The notes: generated by a model not told the origin, from the letters alone. Shown: positions 1,379 to 53,345, numbered from the stretch's first letter. The stretch: DNA of 64,000 bases from Candidatus Moraniibacteriota bacterium (GCA_016699875.1 CP064989.1:584788-648787); one strand, 5' to 3'. Made by a program: numbers and translations.

Positions 1379-1442
1379 ACGCGAAGCATACCAAACCGAA
1401 AGCCTCTCGCGCAATTTCCGGCAACCGTGATAGAGTGAATCC

Positions 1443-6051: not shown

Positions 6052-6083
6052 TTATTAGTATCCGAAAAATATTCCCACAGCGA

Positions 6084-6116
6084 AAAGCAACTCATCTTTA
6101 AAGAGTTGCTTTTTAT
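6084..6116 (+). terminator. Rho-independent terminator after the LysM-CHAP gene
   Basis: Stem 'aaagcaactc'/'gagttgcttt' (10 bp) with 9-nt loop, then T-run. Confidence 0.55.
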
Positions 6117-6162
6117 TATCACTTTGAGAGAAAAATTGCTCAGTTTTTTACTCACAAGAAAC

Positions 6163-6230
6163 TGTCCACAAATCAACACTTGTCACCCAACAGCGTCAAA
6201 ACAAGAGAAACTGTTCACATCCTGTGCACA
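6163..6230. promoter_or_regulatory. Cluster of three TGTNCACA motifs (TGTCCACA 6163, TGTTCACA 6212, TGTGCACA 6223), putative operator or DnaA-box-like sites
   Basis: Motifs seen directly. The last two are 11 bp apart (one helical turn). They lie in the 570-bp AT-rich spacer upstream of the T4SS-like operon. Confidence 0.3.
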
Positions 6231-6561
6231 ACCCCATGTTTCCTGGTGAAAAACTACGGATATACCCTGTGAATTACCCAAGCAACAAAGTGAGCAATCA
6301 GGTTATTTCACCCAAATGAATTCCAAATCAACAGCAACACTTGAGAATTCCACGAAAGTATATGCCATTAAAAAGCCCCCAACAAACCCATTTAATCTGT
6401 TTCTCCACTTCTCCACAGTACTAATAGTAATAAAAATTAAATATATATATAAAATTCATTATTCATTAAGTAGGGGGAGATAGGGTGAACAAATCTTTCT
6501 TTGTGCTAACACAAGAGTACTGGCATTTTCGTATACGACGTATTTGCTTTACATCTTTATT

Positions 6562-6588
6562 TTGAACTGAGAATTTTCGTGATATACT
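6562..6588 (+). promoter_or_regulatory. Candidate promoter (TTGAAC, 15 bp, extended -10 TGaTATACT) for the T4SS-like operon
   Basis: TTGAAC 6562-6567; 'tgatatact' with TATACT 6583-6588. Spacer is short (15 nt), compensated by the extended -10 TG. Confidence 0.35.
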
Positions 6589-6621
6589 TTCCACTGGAAC
6601 ACTGTCTTTGTTTTTCGATGT

Positions 6622-8673
6622 GTGAGAAAAAGAGGTAAAACAAAAAAATCATTTTTGTTTAATGCGATTCTCTTTCTTCAGAGTCACCCTGCTCTGTTTT
6701 TCGCTCTGCTTGCAGGGTGTTTTTTGTTGGTTCCGAGCGGTCAATTTGCTCAAGCTGGCTGGTTTGAGAATTTGGCATCGCCAAGAGCGTGGATTAATGC
6801 TCTTGTGTATCCGTTTTTTCTGTTTTTTTCGTGGATTGTAAATTTGGCGGCGGGAATTTTTGTGTGGGTGATTAATGCGGAAACTTTTACCAAGCTCATG
6901 AATGCGGGAGCTATTTATGAGGTATGGCTTATTGTTCGTGATTTTCTTAATATTTTCTTTATATTGGTACTTCTTTTCTCTGCTTTTGCCACGATATTTC
7001 AGTTGGACAAATATGAATACAAGCGAACTATACCGATGCTGGTTATTATGGCTCTTTTGGTGAATTTCAGTTTTCCGGTGGCGCGATTTGTGATTGATTT
7101 GGCAAATGTGCCGATGTATTTCTTTTCGCAGAATATTTTTGGTGTTGATGGCCCCAATGAGATTACCTCGGGAATATTAAGTGGTGCCAAGATGCAGAAC
7201 ATTCTTATTCCGGGGGTTGATGATAAGTCCTTGAAGGACTTTGAGACAACACACCTTCTTGCAGCGACTATTTGTATGTTTTTGTTTGGCATCTCTTTCT
7301 TGGTATTGTCGGTGCTGATGTTGGTTCGAATGATTGCGCTTGCTATTTTGGTGATGTTTTCGCCAATTGGTTTTGTGGGAATGATTACCCCGGCGCTCCA
7401 GGGCTTTGCAAAGGGCTGGTGGGATAAATTGTTCAAATGGGCATTTTACGGACCGATTGCAGTGATGTTTGTATTGGTGTCGGTTATTGTCATGAAATCG
7501 GCAGGAGACTCTATATATCCCACTGCAGGTGCGGGTGGCGCCTTTCAGTCTACAGGAAGTTCGGTGAATGATAATATGATATCTGCTGTTGCTTTCTTTA
7601 CGATTCCAATTGTGCTTTTTTGGATCGCTATTACCTCCACAGAAAAATACAGCAATGATATATCCGGCTTGGGAATAAAATGGGGATCACAATTGGGGAG
7701 AAAGGCCGGGAATTTGGTTAGAAAGGGTGCGGTAGGGACGGTTTTATATATTCCAAGGCAATCAGGAATTGTTGGTGGCGTGGAGAATGCTTGGAAAAAT
7801 AGAAAGTCTTGGTGGCTTGGAGGTAGAGAATCAAAGGAGGCTCGGGAGAGGCGAGAAGCTGGGTGGGAAGGATTATTTGGAAGTGCCTCTCATCCTGTAG
7901 AAGGTGTACGAAAGGCTTTGGATGAAAATACACGAAAAAGGGTTCATGAACTTGCTGAAAAAAATAAAAAGGATAATCGTTCGTATGCTGATCTTCAAAG
8001 GGATCTTGAGTCTAAAGATGAAATCAAAAAACGAGCTGCAGCAATTACTATGGCGGACAAGGAGATGTTTGAAAGTGCTGAGGATTTTTCAAGAGCACTT
8101 GAAGCTGCTGGTGGTGATATTGACAGTATAACTAAGATTGTACGAAAAGCTCCTAAAGAAATGTTGCGGTCGGGAGATGACCTTGCAAAGGTGCTTGAAG
8201 CAGTAAATACTGCAACGTCAAAGATACCAGGAATGCGACCGGTTGCTCAGGCTCAAATAAAATCTCAACTTATTGATAAGGCGGGAAGTGGAGCTCTTCC
8301 ATCGGCGGATACTATTGGTGGTGCTCAGTATAGGAAGATTCTTAAATCTTTGGGGGGTGATTCAACTCTTGAAAAGACCTTGGAAGGGAAGATGAAAAAG
8401 GAAGGACGATTGAGGGCGGTTCTTGAGTATAGGTTGGGAGAAGCTGGTACGGATGCAACAAAGAGGCAAATGGCATACGAAACAACATTTGGGAAACTTG
8501 ATTCGGAAAATCTTGGGAAGCAAGGGGGATTAATTGGTGATTCTGGTTTCAGAGATTATTTCAAGGGGAGAATGAAGAGTGGAGAGTACAATGACGACTT
8601 TCTTGAGGGATACTTGCGATATACTGGTGGAGGAAATAGGAAATCTTTCGAGAGACATGTTACTTCCCCATAA
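6622..8673 (+). CDS. VirB6/TrbL-like polytopic membrane protein with a charged C-terminal soluble domain
   Basis: 683 aa, GTG start. About 8 TM helices in the first 330 aa, then a K/E-rich hydrophilic tail. Position is first in an operon with VirB3/VirB4-like genes. Confidence 0.45.
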   Translation: MRKRGKTKKSFLFNAILFLQSHPALFFALLAGCFLLVPSGQFAQAGWFENLASPRAWINALVYPFFLFFSWIVNLAAGIFVWVINAETFTKLMNAGAIYEVWLIVRDFLNIFFILVLLFSAFATIFQLDKYEYKRTIPMLVIMALLVNFSFPVARFVIDLANVPMYFFSQNIFGVDGPNEITSGILSGAKMQNILIPGVDDKSLKDFETTHLLAATICMFLFGISFLVLSVLMLVRMIALAILVMFSPIGFVGMITPALQGFAKGWWDKLFKWAFYGPIAVMFVLVSVIVMKSAGDSIYPTAGAGGAFQSTGSSVNDNMISAVAFFTIPIVLFWIAITSTEKYSNDISGLGIKWGSQLGRKAGNLVRKGAVGTVLYIPRQSGIVGGVENAWKNRKSWWLGGRESKEARERREAGWEGLFGSASHPVEGVRKALDENTRKRVHELAEKNKKDNRSYADLQRDLESKDEIKKRAAAITMADKEMFESAEDFSRALEAAGGDIDSITKIVRKAPKEMLRSGDDLAKVLEAVNTATSKIPGMRPVAQAQIKSQLIDKAGSGALPSADTIGGAQYRKILKSLGGDSTLEKTLEGKMKKEGRLRAVLEYRLGEAGTDATKRQMAYETTFGKLDSENLGKQGGLIGDSGFRDYFKGRMKSGEYNDDFLEGYLRYTGGGNRKSFERHVTSP

Positions 8674-8703
8674 GTTGCATTAAGCGTGTTACAGGTTGTA
8701 CCT

Positions 8704-9930
8704 ATGGATGACGCTGAAAATTCAAAAAAAAGAAGAGTATGTCGTCCCATGCTGACCAATATTGACTTCTTTGGAAAAGAGCTTTCCGAGAGTGAATTTA
8801 ATGGTTTGTGGGGAATTTTCGATACCCTCTCGGAGGAAGTAAAAGATATTTTGACGACGCCAGAAATGTCGCGAAGAATTGAGTTGCTTCAAAAAGAACG
8901 AGGCCTTTCGGACGAGCATATTGAAATTATCTCGGCGATTATCCGTGAATATTTTCTTCGGAATAAAGATGTAATCTGGCTTCAGGATGCTCTCACGCGC
9001 AGACTTGATCAGAAAGACGTGGTATTTGTGAAAGAGTATATTCAAAAGAATATTCTTACGATTAAGCCAGTTCCTAGGGTGCTGTCAGAAAATGATGGGT
9101 CTTCGGCGGTGCAAATTGTCCAACTTCCGCTTCTGGATGCATTGGCGAAGTATCAGCGGCTGTCGGAGCAAACAGTGACGGATGATCGTATCAGTGTGAA
9201 GGGGGAATCTGCGCCGGTTCGGGGGTCGATTCGGAATTGGTTGCGGCACTATCGTGATGCGGTGGGTATTCGAAAGCACTCGACAATGGAACGAGGGCAA
9301 TTTCTCTTTCAGGGAGAGAATACGAGGCGACTGTCTGCTCAGGATCGGGAAAAAGTATCTTTTCTTCTCAAGGCGCTCGATGAAAATACCCCAGTGCCAA
9401 TTGATAGCAATCGTCAAGAACTGATGTTTCCCGCGTTTCAAGATCGGGGAAGCGTCAGTACGCAACCGGTGACGGAGACTTCTGTTCCGGCGCTCGAGAC
9501 ATCATTTCGTCCATTGGAAAAGTTTCCAGCACAGGCGGCGCCTATTCAGAAGGCGCTTGAATGGAAATCGAAAGAGAAAAAAGAAAATATACCAAATCAA
9601 CCCCCTCAGCCCGGTGGAATATCCGCCCCGGTGTATGCTTCAGTCGCACCTTTTCAGTCAAAAGCTCCCGCTAAAGGGGGTATGAGTTTCAGCTCGAGCC
9701 ATGTGCTGCCGCATGAGAAGGAACAGGAAGCAACGAAGAGTCGACAGAATTCAATTTCACATGTGTCGGAGAGTTCTCGCGATCCGGAAGCAATTAGTGT
9801 CATTCGACCTCGCAGAAGTCTTCATGGTGCTCAGCGGGAGTCTGAATGGTCTCAGGGAAGTGGCTCTGACGCTTCTCGTGTGGTAAACTTACGGAGTTCG
9901 AGAGAGAAGAATATTCAAGGAAAGGTATAG
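8704..9930 (+). CDS. Hypothetical soluble protein (Ser/Pro-rich C-terminus) in the T4SS-like operon
   Basis: ORF 8686..9930; the ATG at 8704 ('MDDAENSKK') is the more likely start. No recognisable motif. Confidence 0.5.
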   Translation: MDDAENSKKRRVCRPMLTNIDFFGKELSESEFNGLWGIFDTLSEEVKDILTTPEMSRRIELLQKERGLSDEHIEIISAIIREYFLRNKDVIWLQDALTRRLDQKDVVFVKEYIQKNILTIKPVPRVLSENDGSSAVQIVQLPLLDALAKYQRLSEQTVTDDRISVKGESAPVRGSIRNWLRHYRDAVGIRKHSTMERGQFLFQGENTRRLSAQDREKVSFLLKALDENTPVPIDSNRQELMFPAFQDRGSVSTQPVTETSVPALETSFRPLEKFPAQAAPIQKALEWKSKEKKENIPNQPPQPGGISAPVYASVAPFQSKAPAKGGMSFSSSHVLPHEKEQEATKSRQNSISHVSESSRDPEAISVIRPRRSLHGAQRESEWSQGSGSDASRVVNLRSSREKNIQGKV

Positions 9931-9966
9931 TGTTTTCTTGGAGAATTACCGAGAAGTATCTTATAT

Positions 9967-10380
9967 GTGATTTGGATAGCGGCTTCTATGCTTTTTAATG
10001 TTCCGCAATTCATTGATGTTGAGGATAAAGTGGCGGGGCCGCTCACAGCAAAACAAATACTCTGGATGGTGGGAATGGGAGGGGTATTGTTTATTGTGTG
10101 GACATTCCTCGATACGACCACGTTCTTCGTGTTTTCTATTCCCGTCATCATTATTTTCGTATTGTTTGCTTTTTATCGTCCGTATAATCAGTCACTCCTC
10201 TTCTTTTCGGTGAATGCAGTCCTCTTCTTCTTTCGGCCGAAAGTGTATACATGGGATCGCCCGGGCGTGATGAAGAACGAAGTCTCGAAGCCAAAAGAGG
10301 AAAAAGCAACACGTGAGAGTCCAAGAGCTCTCTCGGTCGAAGAAATACGGAGCTTGGCAAAAGTGGTTGATAGGAAGTGA
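9967..10380 (+). CDS. Small two-TM membrane protein, VirB3-like by size, topology and position
   Basis: 137 aa with two hydrophobic helices ('LWMVGMGGVLFIVWTFL', 'FFVFSIPVIIIFVLFAFY'), immediately upstream of the VirB4 N-domain gene. Confidence 0.35.
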   Translation: MIWIAASMLFNVPQFIDVEDKVAGPLTAKQILWMVGMGGVLFIVWTFLDTTTFFVFSIPVIIIFVLFAFYRPYNQSLLFFSVNAVLFFFRPKVYTWDRPGVMKNEVSKPKEEKATRESPRALSVEEIRSLAKVVDRK

Positions 10381-10429
10381 TGGAGTCTATTTTTTCTGGG
10401 AAAGTGCCTTCTATAAAGTGGATGATCGT

Positions 10430-11131
10430 ATGGAAACATTGAGCGGCGCCAAAAAACCAGCAATGCAAGATTCGGCATCCAGTACTCAGCGCTATGTGGA
10501 TGTTGAGGAGGTGCGCGATGGTGTCATCGTACTCAAGAATGGCGCGCTTCGCTCGGTGCTTTTGGTTTCATCGCTCAATTTCGATCTCAAATCCGCCGAG
10601 GAACAAGATGCTATTATTTTGCAGTATCAGAATTTTCTCAACTCACTGGATTTTCCGGTTCAGATCGTCATCTCTTCTCGCCGGTTTGATATTCAACCGT
10701 ATATCGAAGTTTTGAAGGATAAAGAAAATCATCAGAGAAATGAGTTGTTGCGTATGCAGATTTCCGAGTACCAGAATTTTATTAAGAATCTTTCAGAAGT
10801 ATCAAATATCATGTCGAAGTTTTTCTACGTTGTTATTCCGTTCTCTCCGGTTGAAGACAAAGAAAAGGGATTGTTTCATAGTCTGACAACGCTCTTCAAT
10901 CCGGCTGGGGCAATTGCGGAGCGTCGTGAATACTTTGAAACCTACAAGAATCAACTGTGGCAACGTGTGGATCATGTGAGTTTCAGTTTGTCACAGACCG
11001 GGCTTAAGGTAGCGCCACTCAACACGGAAGAGTTGATAGAGCTCTTGTATAACTCCTACAATCCGTCGCTCTTTACGACTCGATTGACAAAAAATATCGA
11101 AGCGATTGACCTGGCGGTTGAGAAAGCATAG
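10430..11131 (+). CDS. VirB4/TrbE/CagE N-terminal domain protein (either a separate gene or the N-terminal fragment of a disrupted VirB4)
   Basis: 'VEEVRDGVIVLKNGALRSVLLVSSLNFDLKSAEEQDAIILQYQNFLNSLDFPVQIVISSRRFD' matches the conserved N-terminal region of conjugative VirB4 ATPases. Same reading frame as the downstream ATPase ORF. The track start at 10313 overlaps the upstream gene, so ATG 10430 is preferred. Confidence 0.5.
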   Translation: METLSGAKKPAMQDSASSTQRYVDVEEVRDGVIVLKNGALRSVLLVSSLNFDLKSAEEQDAIILQYQNFLNSLDFPVQIVISSRRFDIQPYIEVLKDKENHQRNELLRMQISEYQNFIKNLSEVSNIMSKFFYVVIPFSPVEDKEKGLFHSLTTLFNPAGAIAERREYFETYKNQLWQRVDHVSFSLSQTGLKVAPLNTEELIELLYNSYNPSLFTTRLTKNIEAIDLAVEKA

Positions 11132-11200
11132 TGAGTGCCGTTTTTTGTGGGCAATACCCATTTATTTTCAAAGAAAGTCATTTTCAGAATTTGAAATCGA

Positions 11201-13039
11201 ATGTTTATGCGCGTCCCTTTTTTGTCTTCTTCCGGAGGTGAACAGGATGAAATCCTCGCGAGCGAGGTGCTTTACCAGCGAGGAGTAGCTCGTATTCGTG
11301 ATCTCATTGCTCCATCTGCCATTAAGGTAACAGCGAATTCTCTTCAGTCTGGCGAAACATTGGTGCGAACGCACTTTATCATTGCGTATCCACGCTATCT
11401 CAACACGAACTGGTTCTCACCGGTGGTGAATCTCGATTTTCCCATGGATACGGCGATGTTTGTACACCCGATTGATACGCGTGACATCTTGAGGAATCTC
11501 TTGAAATCGGCAACGCGGGTGGAATCTTCGATTCAAATAGAATCCGAAGCTGGCAAGGTACGAAGTCCGGTACTTGAGACGGCACTTCATGATATTGAAG
11601 AATTGCGCGATCGACTTCAGCAGGGGACAGAAAAGTTCTTTCGTTTCAGTATCTATATTTCGCTCTATGCGCAGTCGATTGAGGAGCTCAATCGCATGGG
11701 CCGATCCATTGAGGCGATGCTTGAGTCTCAATTGGTCTATATAAAGCCGTCCGTTTTGCGGATGCAACAGGGATTCACGTCGACGCGTCCGATCGGGACG
11801 GACACGCTCGATGTGGCAAATAATTTGAATACGGCGCCGCTTTCGACGACATTTCCATTTGTATCCGCCGATCTTTCGTCGAACGACGGCATTCTATACG
11901 GTATTAACCGGCACAATAACAGCCTGATTCTTTTTGATCGGTTCAAGCTCGAGAATGCGAATATGGTGATATTTGCAAAGTCGGGTGCCGGGAAAAGCTA
12001 TTTCATGAAGCTGGAGATATTGCGTTCCATGATGTTTGACACAAGCGTTATTGTGATTGATCCGGAGAATGAATACAAGCATTTGGCAGAGACTGTGAAT
12101 GGCTCATTTATTCACATGAGTCTCAATTCCGCTTTCCATATCAATCCATTTGATTTGCCGAAACAGCGCGACGAGCAAGAAGATTTCGAAGGGCTCTTGC
12201 GAAGCAATATTGCTACGCTGATCGGATTGCTGCACCTCATGCTGGGGAGTGTCACGGCGGAGGAGGACTCTATTCTTGACCAAGCCCTCCGCGAAACGTA
12301 CGCGGTGCGCGATATTACCGGGAAAACAGACCTTGCGACACTGACACCGTCCTCATTCCCTACCATGAGCGACCTGTATGAGGTTTTGAGAAATATGGAG
12401 GGGACTGAGTCACTCTCCGCTCGTCTTGAAAAATATACTCAAGGGATTTTCTCGGGATTTTTGAATCATGCGAGCAATATCACCATGCAGAACCAGTTTG
12501 TTGTGTTTAATATACGTGATTTGGAAGAAGAGCTGCGTCCGATAGCCATGTATCTTATCTTGCACTATATCTGGAATGAGATGCGGTCGGAGTTGAAGCG
12601 GCGACTGGTTGTGGTGGATGAGGCATGGATTATGATGCAGAACGACGATGCGGCGAGCTTTCTTTTTGGCATTGCGAAGCGTGCTCGGAAGTATTATTGC
12701 GGATTAACAACGATTACTCAGGATATCAGTGACTTCATGGGGTCGAAATATGGAAAGCCAATCGTGACCAATTCATCGCTCCAGCTCTTACTGCGGCAGT
12801 CTCCCGCATCGATCGATGTGGTGACAGAGACCTTCTATCTCACGGATCACGAAAAGTTCTTGCTATTGGAGAGTGCTGTTGGTGAGGGAATATTCTTTGC
12901 CGGTTCGAAGCATGTGGCTATTAAGGTGGTGGCATCATATAGCGAAGATCAGATTATCACATCGAATCCGGAGCAGCTCGCTGAGATAGAGGCAGCAAAA
13001 CGGGAATTTGACGAGCATGGCGGCTGGAGCGAGAGGTAA
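11201..13039 (+). CDS. virB4: VirB4-family conjugation/secretion ATPase (C-terminal ATPase portion)
   Basis: 612 aa. Walker A 'IFAKSGAGKSYFMK', Walker B 'RLVVVDEAWIMM', 'RKYYCGLTTITQD'. Central VirB4 region 'RTHFIIAYPRYLNTNWFSPVVNLDFP'. Confidence 0.8.
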   Translation: MFMRVPFLSSSGGEQDEILASEVLYQRGVARIRDLIAPSAIKVTANSLQSGETLVRTHFIIAYPRYLNTNWFSPVVNLDFPMDTAMFVHPIDTRDILRNLLKSATRVESSIQIESEAGKVRSPVLETALHDIEELRDRLQQGTEKFFRFSIYISLYAQSIEELNRMGRSIEAMLESQLVYIKPSVLRMQQGFTSTRPIGTDTLDVANNLNTAPLSTTFPFVSADLSSNDGILYGINRHNNSLILFDRFKLENANMVIFAKSGAGKSYFMKLEILRSMMFDTSVIVIDPENEYKHLAETVNGSFIHMSLNSAFHINPFDLPKQRDEQEDFEGLLRSNIATLIGLLHLMLGSVTAEEDSILDQALRETYAVRDITGKTDLATLTPSSFPTMSDLYEVLRNMEGTESLSARLEKYTQGIFSGFLNHASNITMQNQFVVFNIRDLEEELRPIAMYLILHYIWNEMRSELKRRLVVVDEAWIMMQNDDAASFLFGIAKRARKYYCGLTTITQDISDFMGSKYGKPIVTNSSLQLLLRQSPASIDVVTETFYLTDHEKFLLLESAVGEGIFFAGSKHVAIKVVASYSEDQIITSNPEQLAEIEAAKREFDEHGGWSER

Positions 13040-13125
13040 TGGTTCTGTTGTTTACACTCGTCTGCATGCTCCTTATTTCTATAGCTGTGAATGGCGAATG
13101 CTCTGAGGGGTAAAGGTGTATCTGT

Positions 13126-13812
13126 GTGTCTATGGCTGTTGCCAGTGCCATTGCGAATAGTCGAGATCGTCTCGCCTCCGAAGCGTCTGCTGAGGAGGAG
13201 CGAGCGTTGTTTCGTGAACAGCAGGCGCGTTTGCAAGAAGCTCAGAGGGTAGCACGTATCGTACAGGAAGAGGCGGCAGTGTCTGAATCGGAAGACAATG
13301 AGCCAGAAAGCGCGTCCTTAAATCGCTTGGAGCGAGTAAGTATATTTTCGTATTCAGCGTCGCTCATCGTCGCGTGCTTCAAAGATTTGCTCGACTTCAC
13401 CATTGTGATGGCGCTTCCAGTGATAGCGCCGGTGATCAGTTTGTGTGCCAACGCTCTCATCGTGCTCCTACTCTTCTTTCCGAAGCACCGGTACAGGATT
13501 GCGTCAAATGCTCGACTCATCATTATCGACGCGTTCATTTTGCTCGGACTGATTCCGCTCGAAGGATTGGCGTTTCCTTTTAATCTTCTTCCGTTTACAG
13601 TGGCGGCAGTGGGCATGATCTATGTGGTTGATAAAAAATTCGTTGCCGCAAGAAATTCGAAGCACTTTGATAAAAGACGAATGAAAGAAAATCTGAGCCG
13701 TGTTATTCGTCAAGCGTCGAGTGATCGAGGGAACACTGATAAGAGTCGGGTGTCCGAGCAAATGCGGTCGACGTGGGATATGCCGGAACGCGAAACGAGG
13801 TTTGAGGCGTAG
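13126..13812 (+). CDS. Membrane protein (N-terminal coiled/charged region, then 3-4 TM helices), hypothetical T4SS-associated
   Basis: 228 aa; hydrophobic core 'ALPVIAPVISLCANALIVLLLFF ... LLGLIPLEGLAFPFNLLPFTVAAVGMIYVV'. Confidence 0.5.
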   Translation: MSMAVASAIANSRDRLASEASAEEERALFREQQARLQEAQRVARIVQEEAAVSESEDNEPESASLNRLERVSIFSYSASLIVACFKDLLDFTIVMALPVIAPVISLCANALIVLLLFFPKHRYRIASNARLIIIDAFILLGLIPLEGLAFPFNLLPFTVAAVGMIYVVDKKFVAARNSKHFDKRRMKENLSRVIRQASSDRGNTDKSRVSEQMRSTWDMPERETRFEA

Positions 13813-13843
13813 TTAAAACAAACATGAAAACCAGGAAGTTTCT

Positions 13844-14545
13844 ATGGTGTACCCGGCAAAAAAACATCCGTTGCTCGATATCTGCGTAAATCGACGGTTT
13901 CTTGGTTTGAATGCGCTTCTTTTGGCGAGTATTTTCCTGGCTCTTTTCTTTCCTGTTTCCGGAACAGCAGAGCAGTTTTTGCTGGCATTCTCGGTCTACT
14001 TTGCGCTGCCTGCTCTGTTTGTTCGGTTTGTTTTGTGCGAGCCGCTTTCGAAGTACGGATGTTCATGGGGGAAGTTCGGCATCGTTGCAAATATAACCTG
14101 GATTCTTGCGGGAGCTTCCCTATTTGGAGCTTTTGTATGGGGCGTGTTGCGATGTACATCTTCCGGACAGGTGTTCTTGAATTCGTCGCAAGCATCTCTC
14201 ACGGTGATTCACCGGGATTTTCTGATGTTTCTCGGATCAATGGCGTTTCTAGCGTGGTTTATCTTCTTAAAAGAAGTATTCTTTCGCGGATTTTTTCTCC
14301 TTCTTTGGAAGAAGTTCTTGTCATGGCGGAGTCTCATAGCGCATTTCTTGCTTGTTGCTGTTGTTTCCGCGCAAGAGCTTCACGTTTTCGCACATACTGA
14401 TACATTCGTGACACTTCTTTTTACGCTGGCATGGTCGATGGTGGCGTCGGTTATTGCATTTGCAACAGAATCTGTTTTTGTATCGTTCTGCTTCTCTCTA
14501 TTTTCTGCTATACTCGTGTTAGTCTTGTCGATTTCGCTTTCATGA
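13844..14545 (+). CDS. Polytopic membrane protein, weakly CPBP/CAAX-protease (Abi)-like
   Basis: 233 aa, 6-7 TM. 'KEVFFRGFF' resembles the CPBP EExxxR motif; 'HVFAH' resembles the FxxxH motif. Stop overlaps the next gene's start (ATGA). Confidence 0.3.
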   Translation: MVYPAKKHPLLDICVNRRFLGLNALLLASIFLALFFPVSGTAEQFLLAFSVYFALPALFVRFVLCEPLSKYGCSWGKFGIVANITWILAGASLFGAFVWGVLRCTSSGQVFLNSSQASLTVIHRDFLMFLGSMAFLAWFIFLKEVFFRGFFLLLWKKFLSWRSLIAHFLLVAVVSAQELHVFAHTDTFVTLLFTLAWSMVASVIAFATESVFVSFCFSLFSAILVLVLSISLS

Positions 14546-17259
14546 AACAAAGAGTTTTTTTCTTTCCGGCAGTGATGCTTGCGGCGATTGTTTTCGCTAC
14601 GATTTTTTCGATTCCAAAAAAGGCGTCGGCTGATATTACAGACGTTTTTGTGACGAATATGCCGAGTGTTTCCGGGAGTTTGAGTTCATTCGAAGAGCGA
14701 TATCATCTCAATCTGGAAAGTTTGCAGAATCAGGGAGAGAACTTCAACGTGTCTGCGCAAAAGGGGCAATCTCCGCAAGTGCTGCTCTATTTCAGTCCAT
14801 CTGATCCAAAGCCGGGGTCTGAAATGGAAGCCCGTGCATTTCCGGAGTTCTTCGGCAATGAAAAAGATACGCTCTATTACACATGGTACATTCGCCGGAA
14901 GGGATGTGAGTTGGATGATTCACCGAGCGAAGAAAAATTGAAGCTCTGCGATCGCGACTCAAGTCCAAGTAGTGATGACTGGCGGTATGATCGGTTTGGA
15001 AATCGGCGGGTTATCTCGGTTGAAGATTGGAAAATTGAAGCGATGCAGTCGATTGTGGCTGGGAATTTCGACTCCACTTGTTCGCTCAATGGCAGTCTTA
15101 CCGATGAAGAGCGTGCGGATTGTGCGGAAAATATGTACAACTCCGGTGCGCCAAGCCGAGTGAATCCGACGGGGAATAAGGGAAATGATCCCGATGAAGA
15201 CGGTTATCGGGCGACGTATGGCGGCGATGGCAAGCTTGGGCAGCACTCGTACTGCTACATTCATGATTTTGAGGATGGAGAAAATTATGAGTTGACCAGC
15301 GGATGTGAGCATTTGTTTCCGGATAGTTATCGAATAGATGGAAACGGTAGAATCGAGCGGGATGGGAATATCGGGGAAAACGACGATGCTTTCCCTATCG
15401 ACGAAGAACATTTCTGGCGGACTGACCCGGAAGATCCGAGTACGGCACAAAATGGCAATAAAGACGAAGCAAATATAGCGGGTCTGGGACAAGGCACTTT
15501 TAAGTGGACCTATCAACCGGAAGACAGGGTTGGCGTGGTTGTGGAAGGGGCGTCCCTCTATACGACGAAATATGATGATTCGAGCATGATGATCATGTGG
15601 GCATTGCCGAAGAATGTCTGTGATGTTGTCGGGAAGGGAACGAAGCAGATCACCACGAAAGGTTTTTCGAGCAATGAGACGGCGCAAGTAACTATAAACA
15701 CATCAACGACCGATATCAACGATTGCTTGGAAGATAACCTCGTTGATCCGACTGAGGGCGCGCAAGCGGAGAATGTTGATGTCTCGCTCTCGTATGAACC
15801 GGAATCGCCTTCAGCGAAGTTGATTCCCTGGGGAGATAGCACGGTGACAGACGCAAAGACTATTGCTCAGACTGGCGATATCCTTACAGTACATGCTTCC
15901 TCTTCCAATACCGGGCAGAGTGCGGCGCTTACCAACTATACTTGGCGTGTTCAGGCGAGTTCGGACGGCACCTTCAATACGCGGTTCAGCGATGAGAATG
16001 TGTGGACGGATATTACCGAGGACCTCCAAACAGCGAAAAATATCAGCATGCCGAATGGCAACAATATCTCCTCGCTTTCTATTAATCTCAATTTGAACAG
16101 CGATTCGTACACGGATGAACAAACAAACACGGTTGTTCCCGGTTTTGGCGAATACTTTGTTGATGATGCGGCGTACCTTCGAATTACCGTAAGTGCGACG
16201 ACAAACTTTTCCGGTTCGGTGAGTCAGAGCGGATCAAGTTCGGTGGTGGTGAAAATTGTGGCGAATAAGTCTATTGACGTCTACGATGTGGATACGGTGA
16301 GTGATTCGGCGACGGGACTGATCAGTGTCAAGCGAAACGACACGGCGCTCTGCACAGCGAACACATTCCAACAGACGATTTGTCCGGTTTTGAACAACCA
16401 GATAGTCGGAGTGTTCCTCTCAACGGGCGAGGGAGAGGTGCGCGATTATGCCTGGACACTGAATGGTCAGTCCCTTGCTTGTACCTCTCGGGTGTCGGGC
16501 GAATGTAACGACTCGAAGCAGGGGGCGGTCAACTTTTTCCCTGTTTCCGGGAATGTCGGGGATATGTATGTTGTAACGGTAGTGGCGAACAATGCTGAAA
16601 CCGGGAAATCGTTTACTGTATCGCGTCGATTTCAGATTGTGGATCCGGATTTCGATATCATTTCCAATGAAACTGAAACGGCATGGCCGAAGTATCTCGG
16701 CAAATATGTGAATCTCGACGGATCCGAATCCGATGATATGAGTAAAACCTCGTTTGAGGGAGTTGTCGGCGGTGTTGCGCAACTCTCCGCAGTGTTTCGC
16801 CCGAGCGTGCTCGGGACGTTCATCTTGAATGGTGTTGAATCGGGAGATGATCAGAGTGAGATGATCTGGTCGATCAATGGCAGTCCTTTCAAGTGGAATG
16901 ATACCGGACTTTCACTTGCGCTCGACGGCAATGTCGGCGACATCTACACGGTGACGCTTTCCGGCGCCTACAACCAGCCACGCAAATTTCGGAAAGCGCT
17001 CTATGATATCTGGCGTATCTCTCCTTTTAGCTCCGAAACCGTGCGATTTTCAAAAGAGATTCAGATTCAATTAGTCACGCTGGAAGGTCAGGAAGATGCT
17101 CGCGGAAAATCGAACACATTCTTTGCCTCGGTCTTTTCCGCTGTTCCGCCCTTTGTGCTCTTTTCCGTCCGACTCATTCTCTCGATGGGCATGATTCTCC
17201 TTATTGTCGGCGTTGTGTTTTCGCTGGCACCAGAGGAAGAAAGAGGTAATGTAAAATAG
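14542..17259 (+). CDS. Large secreted/surface protein (~905 aa) with N-terminal signal peptide and C-terminal TM anchor
   Basis: Signal-like 'MKQRVFFFPAVMLAAIVFATIFSIPKKASA'. Long Asp/Asn/Ser/Thr-rich ectodomain. C-terminal hydrophobic anchor 'ILSMGMILLIVGVVFSLA' followed by 'EEERGNVK'. Confidence 0.6.
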   Translation: MKQRVFFFPAVMLAAIVFATIFSIPKKASADITDVFVTNMPSVSGSLSSFEERYHLNLESLQNQGENFNVSAQKGQSPQVLLYFSPSDPKPGSEMEARAFPEFFGNEKDTLYYTWYIRRKGCELDDSPSEEKLKLCDRDSSPSSDDWRYDRFGNRRVISVEDWKIEAMQSIVAGNFDSTCSLNGSLTDEERADCAENMYNSGAPSRVNPTGNKGNDPDEDGYRATYGGDGKLGQHSYCYIHDFEDGENYELTSGCEHLFPDSYRIDGNGRIERDGNIGENDDAFPIDEEHFWRTDPEDPSTAQNGNKDEANIAGLGQGTFKWTYQPEDRVGVVVEGASLYTTKYDDSSMMIMWALPKNVCDVVGKGTKQITTKGFSSNETAQVTINTSTTDINDCLEDNLVDPTEGAQAENVDVSLSYEPESPSAKLIPWGDSTVTDAKTIAQTGDILTVHASSSNTGQSAALTNYTWRVQASSDGTFNTRFSDENVWTDITEDLQTAKNISMPNGNNISSLSINLNLNSDSYTDEQTNTVVPGFGEYFVDDAAYLRITVSATTNFSGSVSQSGSSSVVVKIVANKSIDVYDVDTVSDSATGLISVKRNDTALCTANTFQQTICPVLNNQIVGVFLSTGEGEVRDYAWTLNGQSLACTSRVSGECNDSKQGAVNFFPVSGNVGDMYVVTVVANNAETGKSFTVSRRFQIVDPDFDIISNETETAWPKYLGKYVNLDGSESDDMSKTSFEGVVGGVAQLSAVFRPSVLGTFILNGVESGDDQSEMIWSINGSPFKWNDTGLSLALDGNVGDIYTVTLSGAYNQPRKFRKALYDIWRISPFSSETVRFSKEIQIQLVTLEGQEDARGKSNTFFASVFSAVPPFVLFSVRLILSMGMILLIVGVVFSLAPEEERGNVK

Positions 17260-17328
17260 AAAAGGAGATCGGGAATAATAAGAGTGCGGAAGCTTCTTAT
17301 CTCGTACGCGCTTGGGGTTGCCATTGAA

Positions 17329-18591
17329 ATGAAACTTTGTATGAATTCTTTGAAGAGAATTGGGGAAATAAGGATTTTTTTATTTGTATGCATGTCTATT
17401 TTTTTGTTTTCTCATAAAGTGGCATTTTCAGCCAATCCTGCAACACGAGCTGAATGTCTTGTGTATGTTTCAAAAACAGCTCAGTGTAAAAGTACTTGTG
17501 ATGGTCTCCAGCAAATAGGAACGTGTAGCGATGACACTTCGGGGAATACTCTATGTTGCGATAAAATATATCAGGAAACAGCCGTGGACGATGTTTCTTG
17601 TCATGCTCAGGGGGGGGTCTGCGTGAGGGATAGCGGTGCCCTTGGTGGAGGATGTAGTGTAAATGGTGAAGTTATAGGGGTGAAAGTTGGTAAGTGCGAC
17701 AATATAGTCGGTACTGGTGCGGCTACAAGCTGCTGCACCGATCCTAAAAACTCACAGGGGACAAATAATTCTTCTTCGGTTTCTTCTACTTCTTCTGGCT
17801 CTACCTCTCTCAACTATACGCCGCTTGAGAATTTGCCTGGGTTTGAGGGGCAGAGCGGGGACTTCGCGACGTATTTCGGGAATCTCTACAAGCTGGCACT
17901 GTGGATTGTGGCGATATCGGCGCTCTTTATGCTCGTTGTGGGCGGGTTTCTCTATCTCTCGAGTGCGGGGAATACGGCACTTCTTGGCACGGCGAAGAAA
18001 ACAATCTACTCCGCACTGATCGGACTGGTGATTGCGCTTATTTCGTGGCTTCTTCTTGATACGATAAACAGCGATTTGACGAATTTGAAACTGACGGGAT
18101 TGACCGGAGCGATAGGAACAAACAGTAGTACAAGTAGCACGTCAACAGCTTCTCCAACAAGTGGCTCCGCGGCCGAGGTTTTGAGTGAAGCGTATAAGAT
18201 GGTCAACAACACATCGTGTTATTATAGCCAAGCTATCCCTCGGAATGGTTGCCAGGGCAGCCCGCCTCATACAGACTGCTCGGACTTTGTTGTTTCTGCA
18301 TACAAGCGAGCCGGATGTTCGGTTCCTCCCGACGGCACTTCAAATATGAAGGCCGTTGCTGAGGATATTGGCGATAAAAGCAGTTTAAAATCCGGCGATG
18401 CTATCGTTTACAATAACGGATCGCATGGACATGTGGTGCTATGTGAAAATGATGGTTGTAGCACATATACGGCTGCTGCCTCAACGAAGAGTGGTCTTGT
18501 GAAAGGTCGAGATTCCGCTCATGTGTTTTCTGATGGAGCTTCTGCTGGAGGTTTGAAGGTTCTTCGGGTAAGCAAATACTGCAAAAGCTAG
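17329..18591 (+). CDS. Cys-rich secreted domain + two-helix pilin-like (VirB2/TrbC-like) membrane hairpin + C-terminal NlpC/P60-type cell-wall hydrolase
   Basis: Signal peptide. 13 Cys in the N-terminal 130 aa. Hydrophobic hairpin 'LYKLALWIVAISALFMLVVGGFLYLSSAGN...KKTIYSALIGLVIALISWLLLD'. NlpC/P60 catalytic 'DCSDFVVSAYKRAG' and 'GSHGHVVLCEN'. Confidence 0.55.
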   Translation: MKLCMNSLKRIGEIRIFLFVCMSIFLFSHKVAFSANPATRAECLVYVSKTAQCKSTCDGLQQIGTCSDDTSGNTLCCDKIYQETAVDDVSCHAQGGVCVRDSGALGGGCSVNGEVIGVKVGKCDNIVGTGAATSCCTDPKNSQGTNNSSSVSSTSSGSTSLNYTPLENLPGFEGQSGDFATYFGNLYKLALWIVAISALFMLVVGGFLYLSSAGNTALLGTAKKTIYSALIGLVIALISWLLLDTINSDLTNLKLTGLTGAIGTNSSTSSTSTASPTSGSAAEVLSEAYKMVNNTSCYYSQAIPRNGCQGSPPHTDCSDFVVSAYKRAGCSVPPDGTSNMKAVAEDIGDKSSLKSGDAIVYNNGSHGHVVLCENDGCSTYTAAASTKSGLVKGRDSAHVFSDGASAGGLKVLRVSKYCKS

Positions 18592-18596
18592 CCGAT

Positions 18597-19319
18597 ATGA
18601 TCCAGAAAATTTACATGCAAAAAAAACTTAAAAAATTTGCCCTCTTTGCAATTATTTTTGTACTGAGCATTATTGCTGCCAGCATCTTCTTTCTTGGTAA
18701 GAAGGAACCTCCCCGGTCCGGAAATGTGAATTCGATAGAGATTGGTCAAGCATATGCATCAGTAAAACAATTTTACGATTCGATTTCCAATGACGGCGGT
18801 AAGGGAATGCTGTGGGCGAACTTTGATAGACATCAGGACGTCTATCCTGTTTCACTCAACAAAATTCTTCTGCAAGATGGATCAATTTCTTCAGAAGGAG
18901 AAGCATTTATTCACTACATGAGTCAACAGGATTTCGATGTCTTCTGCTATAAGGGTGGCAGTGTCCCAAGCTGCGGCATATACATGTCTTTTGCACATCT
19001 GGAGAACTATTCAGGGAATTCTTACGAAGATGCTCTTACAAAGTTGGATGCATGGAGTCCGCATATGCTGAAAGATTTGCGCGGAGTTCTCTTTCCGCAA
19101 GATCCGCTGTCCGTGGAAGATGCTAATCAGTACGTACAATTTGGTAAAGAATATTCTTTGGCTACGGATTTGGGGTTAAAATACAAAAGTTCCGAAGTAA
19201 CAATTGGCACAGAGAAGAGAGGTATTTATTATGGCGTTGTTGATGGATATGTCATTCTGACAACATCAAAGGAGAGTTTGTTTGAAGCCTCTCGGGAACT
19301 TTTTTCACTTGTTCCGTGA
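18597..19319 (+). CDS. Membrane-anchored (N-terminal TM) extracytoplasmic protein, hypothetical
   Basis: 240 aa; 'KKFALFAIIFVLSIIAASIFFLG' anchor. Confidence 0.5.
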   Translation: MIQKIYMQKKLKKFALFAIIFVLSIIAASIFFLGKKEPPRSGNVNSIEIGQAYASVKQFYDSISNDGGKGMLWANFDRHQDVYPVSLNKILLQDGSISSEGEAFIHYMSQQDFDVFCYKGGSVPSCGIYMSFAHLENYSGNSYEDALTKLDAWSPHMLKDLRGVLFPQDPLSVEDANQYVQFGKEYSLATDLGLKYKSSEVTIGTEKRGIYYGVVDGYVILTTSKESLFEASRELFSLVP

Positions 19320-19326
19320 AGTCTCT

Positions 19327-20484
19327 ATGAAGAAATTCTTCATTATCATGGCGGTGTTGTTTGGGGTATTGCTCCTGTTCTTTTTGATATACAACTTTTT
19401 GTTCAAGAACAATCCGCTTGAGGGGAAGGTGCCGAATGTTGCGGTGATTCCCAATGAGCCTGAGTCGGACACGTCAAATCAGAGTGCGGAGGTGAAGGAT
19501 AAAAAAATAGCTCCGCTGACTGATGGCGAGGGCGTTGCCCCATTCTTTGACGTGAAAGATCGCGCGCTGTTTTACCTGGTACCGGATGAAAAAGCACTCA
19601 AAGAGACGTTTCTGGTGACGGGATTGCCGAAGACAGTAGAGACGTTTTCTTTTGTGCCGCGCGACATTGTGTGGTCGCCGGATGGCGGGAAGGCTTTGAT
19701 ACAGAAGGGTGATACCGAATGGGTGCTTTTTAGTCGTAAGAAGGGTAACGAGTCTGATGCGTCATCGACAACTCTTTTGAAGTCGGGCATAGAGAGTCCT
19801 GCCTGGACCAGTCTTGGGGATCGTATTGTGTACAAGTACTTCGATCCGGAGACGAAGAAGCGGACGCTCAATATTGCGAATCCCGACGGGTCGGATTGGT
19901 CCGTGATCGGCGAGACGTCGTTTCAGTTTCTCGAGATGCGCCCGGTGCCGAAGAGTTCGACCGTTGCTGTCTGGAATCGTGGCAATGCGTTTGAGCGGAC
20001 ATCGCTTAAGATATTGCCGATTGTGGGCGGTGAAATGAAAGAAATATTTTCCGCTAACTACGGCGCTGATTACCTGTTCGCGCCGAATGGTTCACGCATT
20101 CTTGTGTCTGACTCCATAGAGAAGGGGAGTACGAGTATTTCGCTCGCGTTGCTCAATGATCAAGGCGGAGGGTATACCAATCTCTTTGTCCCATCATTTG
20201 CGGGGAAGGCGGTGTGGTCGAAGAATAGCCGGTTTGTGTACTACGCGCTTCCCGGGTCGATACCAGCGGGGAGTATTTTGCCAAACGATTACTATCGTAA
20301 GCCGATATTGACGGCGGACACATTCTGGAAAGTGGACGTAGAGACGGGTGAGAAGTCGCGCATTGTGGATCCAAACGATATCGATCAGAACTATGATGCC
20401 GAGAACTTGGTGCTTGATGCTGATGAAACCATGCTCTTTTTTCGGAATCGTCATGATGGGCGAATCTATAGAATTCTTTTGTAA
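19327..20484 (+). CDS. TolB-like (PD40/WD40-like) beta-propeller protein with N-terminal TM anchor
   Basis: 'WSPDGGKALIQ', 'WTSLGDRIVYKYFD', 'IANPDGSDWSVI', 'FAPNGSRILVSD', 'WSKNSRFVYYA' are repeated PD40-type blades. Confidence 0.55.
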   Translation: MKKFFIIMAVLFGVLLLFFLIYNFLFKNNPLEGKVPNVAVIPNEPESDTSNQSAEVKDKKIAPLTDGEGVAPFFDVKDRALFYLVPDEKALKETFLVTGLPKTVETFSFVPRDIVWSPDGGKALIQKGDTEWVLFSRKKGNESDASSTTLLKSGIESPAWTSLGDRIVYKYFDPETKKRTLNIANPDGSDWSVIGETSFQFLEMRPVPKSSTVAVWNRGNAFERTSLKILPIVGGEMKEIFSANYGADYLFAPNGSRILVSDSIEKGSTSISLALLNDQGGGYTNLFVPSFAGKAVWSKNSRFVYYALPGSIPAGSILPNDYYRKPILTADTFWKVDVETGEKSRIVDPNDIDQNYDAENLVLDADETMLFFRNRHDGRIYRILL

Positions 20485-21704
20485 GACGTAGGTGTGCACT
20501 TCTCAGGGGCGATTCCGAGAAAAAATATGATCCAGAAAAGATAGGACAGACTGATTCTCCAGTAGGGCGTGTCGAAAAGTCCGTGCACGAGGAAAGCGAT
20601 CATAAGAGCGGTGAATATCCAGGGAACCGAGGGGTTCTCTGTTTTTGATATCGATATGGCAATGTGTCGCAGCCAAGCGAAAATAAGGAAACAAAAGGAA
20701 ATGAGCCCGATAATGCCGCTCCCAAGCCAGAATGCGAGAAATATATTGTGCGGCTCGGGGACGGACCATTCGAGATAGGGCGGAAAGAATTGCTGATACG
20801 CAAGGTAACAACTCTGGAAATTTCCCGGACCTATGCCGAAAACAGGCGAATCAATCAGTATTTTTCCGGCGGATTGCCAGATCATGACACGCGATGCAAA
20901 CGATGACCGTGAGTCGAGACTGAAAAAGTGTTCGAATCGGGGAGTATTTCCGTAGGTAAAATAGAACAGAGCGAGAAGGAATGCTGCTATGCCGAGCGTC
21001 ATGCCGAGAGTTTTCGGCGTGGGGCGTTGATGTATAGCTTCAAAAAAGAGGAGGGCGATGCAGGTGGCGAGCCAGGCTGAGTACGAGTGCGTCAAGAAGA
21101 GAAGAAATATGAGTAAGAAAGAAAAGAAAAACCAAAAAATCGTTCTTTGTGTTCGAAGAAAATACCAGGAGAGAATGAGAATTGGCGTGAGGAGCATCGA
21201 GAATGCGTTTGGAGAATTGAAGATGCTCTCGAATCGTCCGTCGTAGGTTGTATAACTTCCAAAAAGCCACATGAGAGACGAGTAGAGGAAAAACGGGAGG
21301 AAAGATAGGGCAAAAATAAACAGGATGTTATCGCGCGAAAAATATCGTTGAGAGATGAGAAAAATCGTATACCCGAAGAAGATTGGAAAGAGAAACCAAG
21401 ATTTTAATATGCCGAGTGCCGTGAGGAGTGTCTCGGACGAAAGCGTGCAGAGAGCGCTCTCTGGAAGTGCGGCGAGAATGGAGAGTGTGACGCCTCCGAG
21501 GAGTGTGAATATGCCAACGGTGATGTGACGCGGTGGAAGCAATGCGGAATATGCTGTGCGGTCGTTTTGACGGTATCGAGAATACAGCATTGCTGCCAGA
21601 ACCATGCCGCACCCGAGGGTGGTTATCTCAACGAAATACATTGGCACGCCAAAAAAAACCAACCGAGCTCCTTCGAACGGGATCAGGAGGAATGTTGCGA
21701 GCAT
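20466..21704 (-). CDS. O-antigen ligase / Wzy-like polysaccharide polymerase family membrane protein
   Basis: About 10 TM helices with a large loop carrying a Wzy_C-like region. Track ORF runs to 21836, but a 21704 start avoids overlap. Confidence 0.5.
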   Translation of the reverse strand: MLATFLLIPFEGARLVFFGVPMYFVEITTLGCGMVLAAMLYSRYRQNDRTAYSALLPPRHITVGIFTLLGGVTLSILAALPESALCTLSSETLLTALGILKSWFLFPIFFGYTIFLISQRYFSRDNILFIFALSFLPFFLYSSLMWLFGSYTTYDGRFESIFNSPNAFSMLLTPILILSWYFLRTQRTIFWFFFSFLLIFLLFLTHSYSAWLATCIALLFFEAIHQRPTPKTLGMTLGIAAFLLALFYFTYGNTPRFEHFFSLDSRSSFASRVMIWQSAGKILIDSPVFGIGPGNFQSCYLAYQQFFPPYLEWSVPEPHNIFLAFWLGSGIIGLISFCFLIFAWLRHIAISISKTENPSVPWIFTALMIAFLVHGLFDTPYWRISLSYLFWIIFFLGIAPEKCTPTSYKRIL

Positions 21705-21733
21705 GCTCGTCAGAATGGGTATGCGTGCGTGTT

Positions 21734-32151: not shown

Positions 32152-32274
32152 TAAAGGCGAATTGATCCAGAGCTGCTGTTGAAACAGGCCAAAGCGTGAG
32201 AGGAGCTCCACGCGATGCGCGCTCAAAAATCTCTTTGTTATATAGAACGCAGTACGTGTTATGTATTATACGAA

Positions 32275-33901: not shown

Positions 33902-34038
33902 CGAGCGTTGACAAATGAGAGAGGATATGTACGTGCCAGTGCTCTTTCCGACGGTATTTCTTGGCGGAACGGCGGTTCCGGAGTGATCTTCGGGATTGCC
34001 GTCCCACCCGGAAATATTTCATTTTTCAGTACTCGAAA

Positions 34039-34067
34039 ACAGAGGCTCGAAGGCCTCTGTTTTTTTG
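34039..34067 (+). terminator. Strong Rho-independent terminator (or attenuator) about 130 nt downstream of the promoter and 75 nt upstream of the giant gene
   Basis: Perfect 8-bp stem 'acagaggc'/'gcctctgt', 6-nt loop 'tcgaag', then TTTTTTT. Confidence 0.65.
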
Positions 34068-34142
34068 TCTCTCTTGTGCTGGGCTGCTTTCAGATCTCCA
34101 TCATATCTCGGCATACCCCGAATGTCCTACGGAGGTGATACA

Positions 34143-51899: not shown

Positions 51900-51918
51900 A
51901 AATATTTGAGTTTATTTT

Positions 51919-53334: not shown

Positions 53335-53345
53335 AGACGACAGTG

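Follow-up and report, generated by a model that had tools for sequence, protein, structure and literature searches.

A probable chromosomal type IV secretion system of Moranbacteria with exchangeable hydrolase heads on its pilin

We analysed a 64,000-nucleotide stretch of DNA from Candidatus Moraniibacteriota bacterium (GCA_016699875.1 CP064989.1:584788-648787; hereafter the window), in which an operon of eleven co-directional plus-strand open reading frames (ORFs, g1 to g11) occupies positions 6622-20484. It is very likely that this operon encodes a chromosomal, vertically inherited type IV secretion system (T4SS) of the Moranbacteria, which stems from the monoderm MPF-FATA conjugation lineage and has lost its DNA-processing parts. 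The system is of the Patescibacteria type already described in papers from 2023-2025, and the modularity of the pilin heads is the detail that we add. The ORFs were called on the translated window, and the parts of the operon were identified by family searches (Pfam, NCBIfam), structure prediction and scans for transmembrane (TM) segments. Conservation was followed in a scan with one genome per species (417 relatives), from which the best 80 of 417 loci were analysed by profile search. The initial annotation of this DNA had proposed eleven tightly packed genes for a Gram-positive-type, VirB4-driven machine spanning the envelope, distinct from a canonical conjugative module. Both points hold: the intergenic gaps lie between -4 and 86 nt (from g1 to g11 in order: 12, 36, 49, 75, 86, 31, -4, 24, 5 and 7 nt), and the hallmark set is present, consisting of a putative VirB6-like protein, PrgI, a TrsD-like protein, VirB4, a VirB2-like pilin and a wall hydrolase. 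Where it had several ATGA-type overlaps of start and stop codons, a single one could be verified, between g7 and g8 at 14542-14545. The genes of the operon and its upstream neighbour are as follows.

4849-6051, plus strand: peptidoglycan hydrolase with two LysM domains and a CHAP domain (Pfam LysM 1.3e-23, CHAP 9.2e-18)
6622-8673, plus strand: g1, extended VirB6/TrbL-like polytopic membrane protein (TM scan and transitive homology)
8686-9930, plus strand: g2, conserved soluble protein (orthologues in 55/80 loci)
9967-10380, plus strand: g3, PrgI/VirB3-like small membrane protein (Pfam PrgI 1.4e-8, 35.6 bits against a cut-off of 27)
10430-11131, plus strand: g4, TrsD-like, free-standing VirB4 N-terminal domain of 233 amino acids (aa) (NCBIfam matches)
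11201-13039, plus strand: g5, VirB4 ATPase, 612 aa (Pfam P-loop_TraG, AAA_10 and DUF87; NCBIfam; PDB)
13126-13812, plus strand: g6, membrane protein with four TM segments and charged N- and C-terminal tails (TM scan)
13844-14545, plus strand: g7, protein with seven TM segments, degenerate CPBP/Rce1-like (TM scan and motif)
14542-17259, plus strand: g8, 905-aa surface protein with an N-terminal anchor or signal and a C-terminal TM segment
17284-18591, plus strand: g9, fusion of a Cys-rich region, a VirB2-like T4SS pilin and an NlpC-P60 domain (Pfam; ATG 17329 was the start in the initial annotation)
18597-19319, plus strand: g10, N-terminally anchored 240-aa protein (TM residues 15-33)
19327-20484, plus strand: g11, N-terminally anchored 385-aa protein (TM scan)

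The motor protein g5, for which the ATG at 11207 is the probable annotated start, matches Pfam P-loop_TraG (2.9e-27) and, over model positions 185-734, the VirB4-like CD1110 family of NCBIfam (6.6e-104, 348.7 bits against a cut-off of 325), an MPF-FATA-type family and the best curated one for this protein. The Walker A (KSGAGKS) and Walker B (VVVDEAW) motifs are legible in the translation, as had been annotated, the C-terminal domain matches the solved VirB4 domain of Thermoanaerobacter (PDB 4ag5, E 2.3e-48), and the g5 profile aligns with PrgJ of pCF10 at an hhalign probability of 99.8. One database match is 100% identical to g5 and is assigned by its source to Candidatus Moraniibacteriota, a lineage of the Patescibacteria. 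VirB4 homologues number thousands in Moranbacteria, and among the matches listed those bearing source names are either from Moranbacteria/Moraniibacteriota or generic conjugal-transfer ATPases. The preceding g4 had been taken for a separate VirB4 N-domain, and it does match the N-terminal positions of VirB4 models as well as TrsD: the NCBIfam matches, all three below the family cut-offs, are to the mycoplasma VirB4 family VirB4_plasma (positions 92-282, 1.5e-11), to TrsD (4.9e-7) and to the N-terminus of CD1110 (1.3e-5), and orthologues of g4 carry PF26593 (TraC-like). The two genes lie in the same frame and are parted by an in-frame TAG, TGA and TGA. Because of these stops, and because the TrsD-like gene is found in 78/80 related loci, we regard the split as a genuine two-gene arrangement; to judge from the sequences, g4 and g5 together most probably constitute one VirB4 made as two separate chains, like TrsD/TrsE of pGO1. 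Recoding of UGA as a sense codon and a frameshift or pseudogene were considered and rejected, given three differing stops and a split that is kept in relatives. The longer VirB4 homologues (~780-880 aa) were likewise rejected as TrsD-VirB4 fusions, since their N-terminal extensions are Pro-rich and of low complexity and are not a TrsD domain.

The membrane platform is recognised with more variable strength. PrgI clears its Pfam cut-off, which agrees with the VirB3-like mini membrane protein of the initial annotation, and is found in 75/80 related loci. The VirB6/TrbL-like assignment of g1 stands on transitive homology: g1 is 30% identical (E 3e-64) to a protein of the related locus L085 with a precomputed match to PF19590 (TrbL_3), a match also recorded on the g1 orthologues in L083 and L088, and one of 22 orthologues matches PF04610 (TrbL) at 1.1e-8. 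A direct Pfam search with g1 itself gave no significant TrbL match, and its match to the NCBIfam mobilome membrane protein CD3337/EF1877 is weak (7.7e-5). The protein has ~6-7 TM segments within residues 1-340 followed by a hydrophilic helical tail of ~340 aa, and in both the number of TM segments and the long tail it resembles the 'extended VirB6' proteins (PMC12857230). When the operon profiles were compared by hhalign with single pCF10 proteins, PrgJ alone was recovered; PrgH and PrgI were top for g1 and g3, respectively, without reaching significance.

The best 80 of the 417 relatives all have Moranbacteria-type loci, and VirB4 is present in 80/80; the locus is conserved there as a secretion operon, not as a cell-division or envelope-biogenesis cluster. 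Two gene arrangements occur. In the first (~56 loci), which includes the order of the window, UvrD, a reverse-oriented Xer recombinase and LysM-CHAP are followed by g1, g2, PrgI, TrsD, VirB4, g6, g7 and g8. In the second (~20 loci) two pilin genes precede PrgI-TrsD-VirB4-g6, and the block from UvrD to VirB6 (UvrD-Xer-LysM/CHAP-VirB6) lies 6-11 kb downstream. The second pilin gene of this arrangement has two pilin domains and no hydrolase head, and g7 and g8 are absent nearby; it was seen, among others, in L009, L018, L024, L029, L030, L036, L037, L039 and L040, and further in L045, L046, L048, L050, L054, L055 and L059. The LysM-CHAP gene adjoins the VirB6-like gene in 47 related loci across both arrangements, and its product is a possible VirB1-like accessory. 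Between the window and its nearest relatives, nonsynonymous divergence (dN) is 0.015 for VirB4, 0.024 for TrsD and ~0.08 for g8, rising to ~0.2 for g6 and g7 and 0.28 for g10, while synonymous divergence (dS) is saturated; these values indicate very strong purifying selection on the VirB4 motor. Many public records of metagenome-assembled genomes with a Moranbacteria-type locus (L001, L002, L004, L006 and many more) are titled 'uncultured Bdellovibrionales bacterium', which looks like a taxonomic mislabel.

This conservation bears on a rival reading, in which the operon would serve mating-pair formation for an integrative conjugative or mobilisable element and so transfer DNA from cell to cell. 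The nearest characterised relatives of VirB4, PrgI and TrsD are indeed conjugation proteins of Gram-positive plasmids and integrative conjugative elements (ICEs), and a gene for a tyrosine recombinase (3695-4621) is found 2 kb upstream of the operon. However, the same flanking genes (recombinase, UvrD and LysM-CHAP) accompany the operon in syntenic order in ~48 species, which is why we read the recombinase as a chromosomal Xer-type gene: its position would reflect conserved chromosomal synteny and not an ICE integrase. No relaxase, VirD4/type IV coupling protein (T4CP) or VirB11 was found by Pfam scan among likely-gene ORFs of at least 130 aa across the 64-kb window, as had been annotated, and relaxases occur near virB4 in just 15 of ~2,400 genomes (PMC12102498). 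The locus is in all 80 relatives sampled, and VirB4 evolves at a dN/dS below 0.01. The compositional contrast initially reported (a G+C content of about 42-45% against a backbone of about 50-53%) is not real, the values being 46.4% for the operon and 48.4% for the remainder of the window, with equally low G+C at 30-32, 34-36 and 48-52 kb, including housekeeping-flanked stretches; there is therefore no hint of foreign origin. With a composition like that of its surroundings and a conserved synteny, horizontal acquisition was rejected, and an origin as a conjugative element is largely refuted and essentially excluded. Conserved gene order, a constrained VirB4 and a window without relaxase, coupling protein or VirB11 argue together for a vertically inherited chromosomal machine that is not mobile. 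It lies on the chromosome, close to dnaA (28582-30141; dnaN is at 32215-33420) and with no relaxase near virB4, which is the combination expected of a Patescibacteria T4SS.

Such systems have been described from other members of the group. Quinonero-Coronel et al. (2025) placed the VirB4 proteins of Patescibacteria in a clade within MPF-FATA; TrsD, PrgI, VirB6 and VirB2-like pilins are encoded nearby, dnaA is frequently close, relaxases are almost absent, and a VirB8-like component is rarely found (PMC12102498). An equivalent cluster was essential for the epibiotic growth of Southlakia epibionticum in transposon sequencing (Wang et al., 2023), where the T4SS has unusual pilins and is missing coupling and relaxase proteins (PMC10633639). 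The architecture of the Patescibacteria T4SS, which is unusual in having pilins, has been reviewed (PMC12857230). Like the window, the T4SSs of this clade, including S. epibionticum SEML1_0006-0019, combine VirB4 and an adjacent TrsD-like protein with PrgI/VirB3, a VirB2-like pilin, one or more wall hydrolases and a VirB6-like protein (assigned transitively in the window); they are chromosomal and close to dnaA, and their neighbourhood is free of relaxase and coupling-protein genes. In the published Saccharimonadia model there is an array of six small divergent pilins, with separate peptidase and lysozyme genes (PMC12102498, PMC12857230), whereas the window has one pilin, fused to hydrolase and Cys-rich modules; additionally, g2, g6, g7, g8, g10 and g11 are conserved as a set specific to Moranbacteria and have no Pfam family. 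Among plasmid systems, the core order of the window is that of pCF10 Prg/Pcf, namely a VirB6-like protein (PrgH), PrgI, VirB4 (PrgJ) and a membrane-tethered hydrolase (PrgK), and the split into TrsD and a TrsE-type VirB4 is that of pGO1 Trs. Unlike either plasmid, the window system is chromosomal and vertically inherited and, in scans of the window, is without PcfC/VirD4, the relaxase (PcfG) and a PrgB-type LPXTG adhesin, with a PrgL/VirB8-like component not detected; it has a VirB2-like pilin, and Gram-positive conjugation systems are without one (PMC12857230).

The pilin, g9, is the sole pilin ORF in the window. From its N-terminus it comprises a signal peptide, two 6-Cys modules, the TM hairpin of the pilin, a Ser/Thr linker and an NlpC/P60 head, as the initial annotation had outlined; both Pfam matches just exceed their cut-offs (T4SS_pilin, PF18895, 4.2e-6, 27.2 bits against 26.6; NLPC_P60, 7.9e-6). 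In the head, the catalytic Cys of 'DCS' and His of 'GH' are preserved in an alignment with the NlpC/P60 structure 8er5. Profile searches thus returned matches for the pilin as they did for VirB4 and PrgI, and the pilin domain is found in 42/43 homologues of g9 (best 1.2e-11). The heads of these 43 proteins, the g9 of the window included, are distributed as follows.

NlpC/P60: 8/43, the g9 of the window among them
LAS_A (H..D..HxH motif): 10/43
LAS_B: 13/43
LAS_C: 10/43
SLT: 1/43
Unclassified (P0172): 1/43

Altogether six head classes are carried on one pilin hairpin: NlpC/P60, three types of LAS zinc peptidase, VanY-like and SLT. The locus L091 holds two pilin paralogues with near-identical hairpins, one with an SLT and the other with a VanY/M15-like head; they lie at 8001-8945 and 10168-11067 of that locus and flank a g11 homologue on both sides. 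On the VirB4 tree, loci with different head types are intermixed. The clearest exchange is between L086 and L001, whose DNA is 98.8% identical for 8.2 kb, as far as the final hairpin codons; the heads beyond are unrelated (NlpC/P60 with g10 against LAS_C), and similarity returns, at 85%, in g11. We interpret this sequence difference as a clean cassette replacement, and it is the only truly recent swap among the pairs compared. The broader statement that near-identical strains swap heads, suggested by a VirB4 identity of 98%, was rejected, since dS is saturated and most of the comparisons are between species. The N-terminal domain varies as well: across homologues its 6-Cys modules extend over 0-225 aa with 12-23 Cys, and it is ~30% identical between genomes whose hairpins share 99% identity. 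As in polymorphic cassettes, g9 thus joins a conserved carrier to alternative enzymatic domains that recombination exchanges at the C-terminus, and the topology of the pilin places both variable domains outside the cell. In the literature searched we found no prior description of swappable pilin heads together with a hypervariable Cys-rich N-terminal domain.

One head type comes with a companion gene. The anchored g10 follows NlpC/P60-headed pilin genes in 6/6 loci, one of which has a differing gene order, and other heads in 0/11; the loci in this comparison are not phylogenetically independent, and the association is suggestive. LAS and SLT heads are without a linked downstream partner of this kind. 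The family of g10 is small and unannotated (27 clusters among 1.84 billion representatives), has no Pfam or PDB matches, and diverges faster than the NlpC/P60 head (62% against 94% identity). Modular phage endolysins and polymorphic toxin loci offer an analogy, for g9 and g10 only: there too a conserved delivery or anchor module carries interchangeable enzymatic heads, one head type has a linked small downstream gene, and a sharp recombination breakpoint falls at a domain boundary. In contrast to these, the anchor of g9 is a T4SS pilin hairpin and not a cell-wall-binding domain of a phage or a carrier of the Rhs, CDI or T6SS kind. Moreover, the linked gene accompanies the NlpC/P60 head only, and an immunity role of g10 is putative.

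What the head is for can be read in two ways. Perhaps VirB4 only assembles a surface pilus or adhesin and remodels the cell's own wall, with nothing translocated and the hydrolase serving as an ordinary assembly factor of the VirB1 type. Gram-positive T4SSs require a membrane-tethered hydrolase for their own assembly, at least as PrgK and CwlT are cited in PMC12102498, VirB4 powers pilus biogenesis in other systems (PMC12102498), and g8 is made of Ig-like domains of the adhesin type. Still, six enzyme classes and an N-domain that drops to ~30% identity beside a 99% identical hairpin have no obvious housekeeping reason, and the VirB6/VirB3 translocon parts are retained under constraint; we deem this account quite unlikely. 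Since a VirB1-type housekeeping role leaves the head switching and the hypervariable N-module unexplained, action on the wall of a partner cell is favoured. A more elaborate proposal, which we advance tentatively and hold to be possible, not probable, as a whole, is that g9 is a modular, host-directed 'warhead' on a T4SS pilin with a function beyond VirB1-type assembly. The hypervariable, defensin-like Cys-rich module would recognise the host surface; the peptidoglycan-hydrolase head (NlpC/P60, LAS, VanY-like or SLT), exchanged by recombination, would be matched to the wall chemistry of the host; and g10, as the cognate partner of the NlpC/P60 head, would protect the cell from it or regulate it. 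If true, the type of head and N-module would track host range, and this would explain part of the essentiality of the T4SS for epibiosis.

Another possibility concerns the direction of transport: the operon could be an import machine for DNA or nucleic acids, like Helicobacter ComB or archaeal Ced, feeding an organism unable to make nucleotides. ComB and Ced are VirB4-based machines that, like the ORFs scanned in the window, have no relaxase or VirD4-type coupling protein, and they set a precedent for import. Additionally, the T4SS has been named as a candidate route of nucleotide acquisition, comEC being dispensable and the T4SS essential in S. epibionticum (PMC11665869), and g5 has a weak match to CedB in NCBIfam (E 4.6e-14, 51.9 bits), far under the family cut-off of 700. 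However, the best VirB4 matches are of the conjugative CD1110/PrgJ types and not CedB, the protein matches to Ced are weak, an import-specific component is not recognisable in the window, and ComB is a diderm VirB2-B10 system, unlike that of the window. Pfam and NCBIfam scans of the operon found no DNA-binding, nuclease or ComEC-like gene. The diversifying heads and Cys-rich modules fit the breaching of a target cell; uptake from a host needs breaching too, and head diversity therefore does not distinguish import from export. On balance we consider an import machine unlikely. In the literature, what the T4SS does in Patescibacteria is still left open as to substrate and direction, with effector delivery and uptake as options (PMC11665869, PMC12857230).

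Established T4SS biology suggests in what order the T4SS that we favour might be assembled, which wall it might cut, and what it might transport and in which direction. VirB4, whose N-domain would come in trans from the TrsD-like g4, would dock on a platform of PrgI/VirB3 and the extended VirB6-like protein, and g6 and the CPBP-like g7 might complete the translocon or aid its assembly. The Ig-like, 905-aa g8 and the anchored g11 could build the extracellular part. Both ends of the single VirB2-like pilin would be exposed outside the membrane, one carrying a Cys-rich module for binding, the other a peptidoglycan hydrolase. The hydrolase might open the cell's own wall or, more probably given its diversification, that of an attached host cell, whereupon the machine would mediate contact-dependent exchange with the host.

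Several points weigh against this interpretation. A VirB8-like component gave no match in Pfam or NCBIfam, and hhalign of the g1-g9 profiles against PrgL and PrgD was negative. The VirB6 assignment of g1 is transitive and not direct. A coupling protein or relaxase could be encoded beyond the window, and distant T4CP homologues are present in many Patescibacteria (PMC12102498). The evidence for essentiality comes from one Saccharimonadia species only. Finally, with domains of ~150 aa at both ends of the pilin, the polymerisation of g9 into a pilus is in question. Although the kind of system is not new, the locus is a well-resolved example from the Moranbacteria with a conserved eight-gene core. 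The swappable wall-cutting heads and the hypervariable surface module make the breaching of a partner cell's wall testable with recombinant domains, and the type of pilin head suggests a marker to compare with host identity in metagenomes.

The remaining operon proteins are conserved to differing degrees. The TM scan agrees with the two membrane proteins (g6 and g7), the 905-aa surface protein and the 240-aa membrane-anchored protein of the initial annotation. Orthologues of g2, where present, always lie between the VirB6-like gene and PrgI; within the protein, a core at about residues 140-250 is conserved and the C-terminal half is disordered, with no TM segments in the TM scan and no match in Pfam or NCBIfam. 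Found directly 3' of virB4 in 76/80 loci, g6 is the most widely conserved partner after TrsD and PrgI, and has no family match in Pfam or NCBIfam. In g7 the motif 'EVFFRGF' is almost invariant across 57 sequences, from which the conserved His motifs of CPBP are missing; its L091 orthologue (g7 profile match 6.8e-44) has a weak precomputed match to PF02517 (Rce1-like). The ectodomain of g8 is beta-rich and includes Ig-like sandwiches. The last protein, g11, had been called a TolB-like beta-propeller: it is an anchored protein of 385 aa, and the likeness to TolB is sub-threshold, with PD40 found in 5/11 orthologues (best E 0.0047) and TolB (7mx5) as the top of a PDB profile search (E 0.061). A PD40/TolB-like propeller is thus possible from sequence comparison. 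Promoter and terminator scans performed no better than on shuffled sequence.

Between the LysM-CHAP gene and the operon lies an AT-rich spacer of 570 bp (6052-6621; 36% G+C, with a very AT-rich tract). It contains the densest cluster of DnaA-box-like 9-mers in the window (6 in 450 bp against a mean of 1.3), and the GC skew changes from negative to positive exactly there. The dnaA gene is 22 kb away; one perfect DnaA box lies at 28478, where the skew change is absent. The switch at the spacer is shared by L002 and L003 and is absent from 29 other Moranbacteria loci. These observations point either to an origin displaced from dnaA or to an old rearrangement. At the start of the window (positions 1-1500, plus strand) the AT skew is strong (+0.36 to +0.40) and the GC skew near zero to negative.

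On its 3' side the operon is followed by a convergent glycan cluster, jag, yidC, rnpA, dnaA and dnaN, with the genes from yidC to dnaN at 6-12 kb downstream. The glycan cluster (20466-26118, minus strand) encodes two Wzy_C O-antigen-ligase-like proteins, two GT2 glycosyltransferases and a flippase, and stays after g11 in the close relatives L001, L003, L005-L007, L066, L082, L085 and L088-L091. Between dnaA and dnaN lies a gene for a DUF4153 membrane protein of low G+C (30238-32151, plus strand, 42%). Three large ORFs are without a Pfam match: 33996-37985 (plus strand, 1329 aa), also low in G+C (44%), 39834-41273 (plus strand, 479 aa) and 48156-50120 (minus strand, 654 aa). The window has no matches to tRNAs or Rfam families. 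An AbiEii-type nucleotidyltransferase toxin domain (type IV toxin-antitoxin/abortive infection) is encoded at 43037-43876 (minus strand). At 50059-54014 (minus strand), three ATP-grasp proteins in a run (RimK-like, YheCD-like, and a sugar-transfer-associated type with a C-terminal protease-like stretch) are followed by a 7TM_transglut membrane protein, in what looks like a peptide-ligase or modification cluster. Finally, a 1012-aa protein (60613-63651, minus strand) carries two complete tandem ATPase domains of the PilB/GspE type (T2SSE) behind an MshEN domain; they are 46% identical to each other and each has a GPTGSGKTT Walker A motif, making this an unusual, fused double pilus ATPase.

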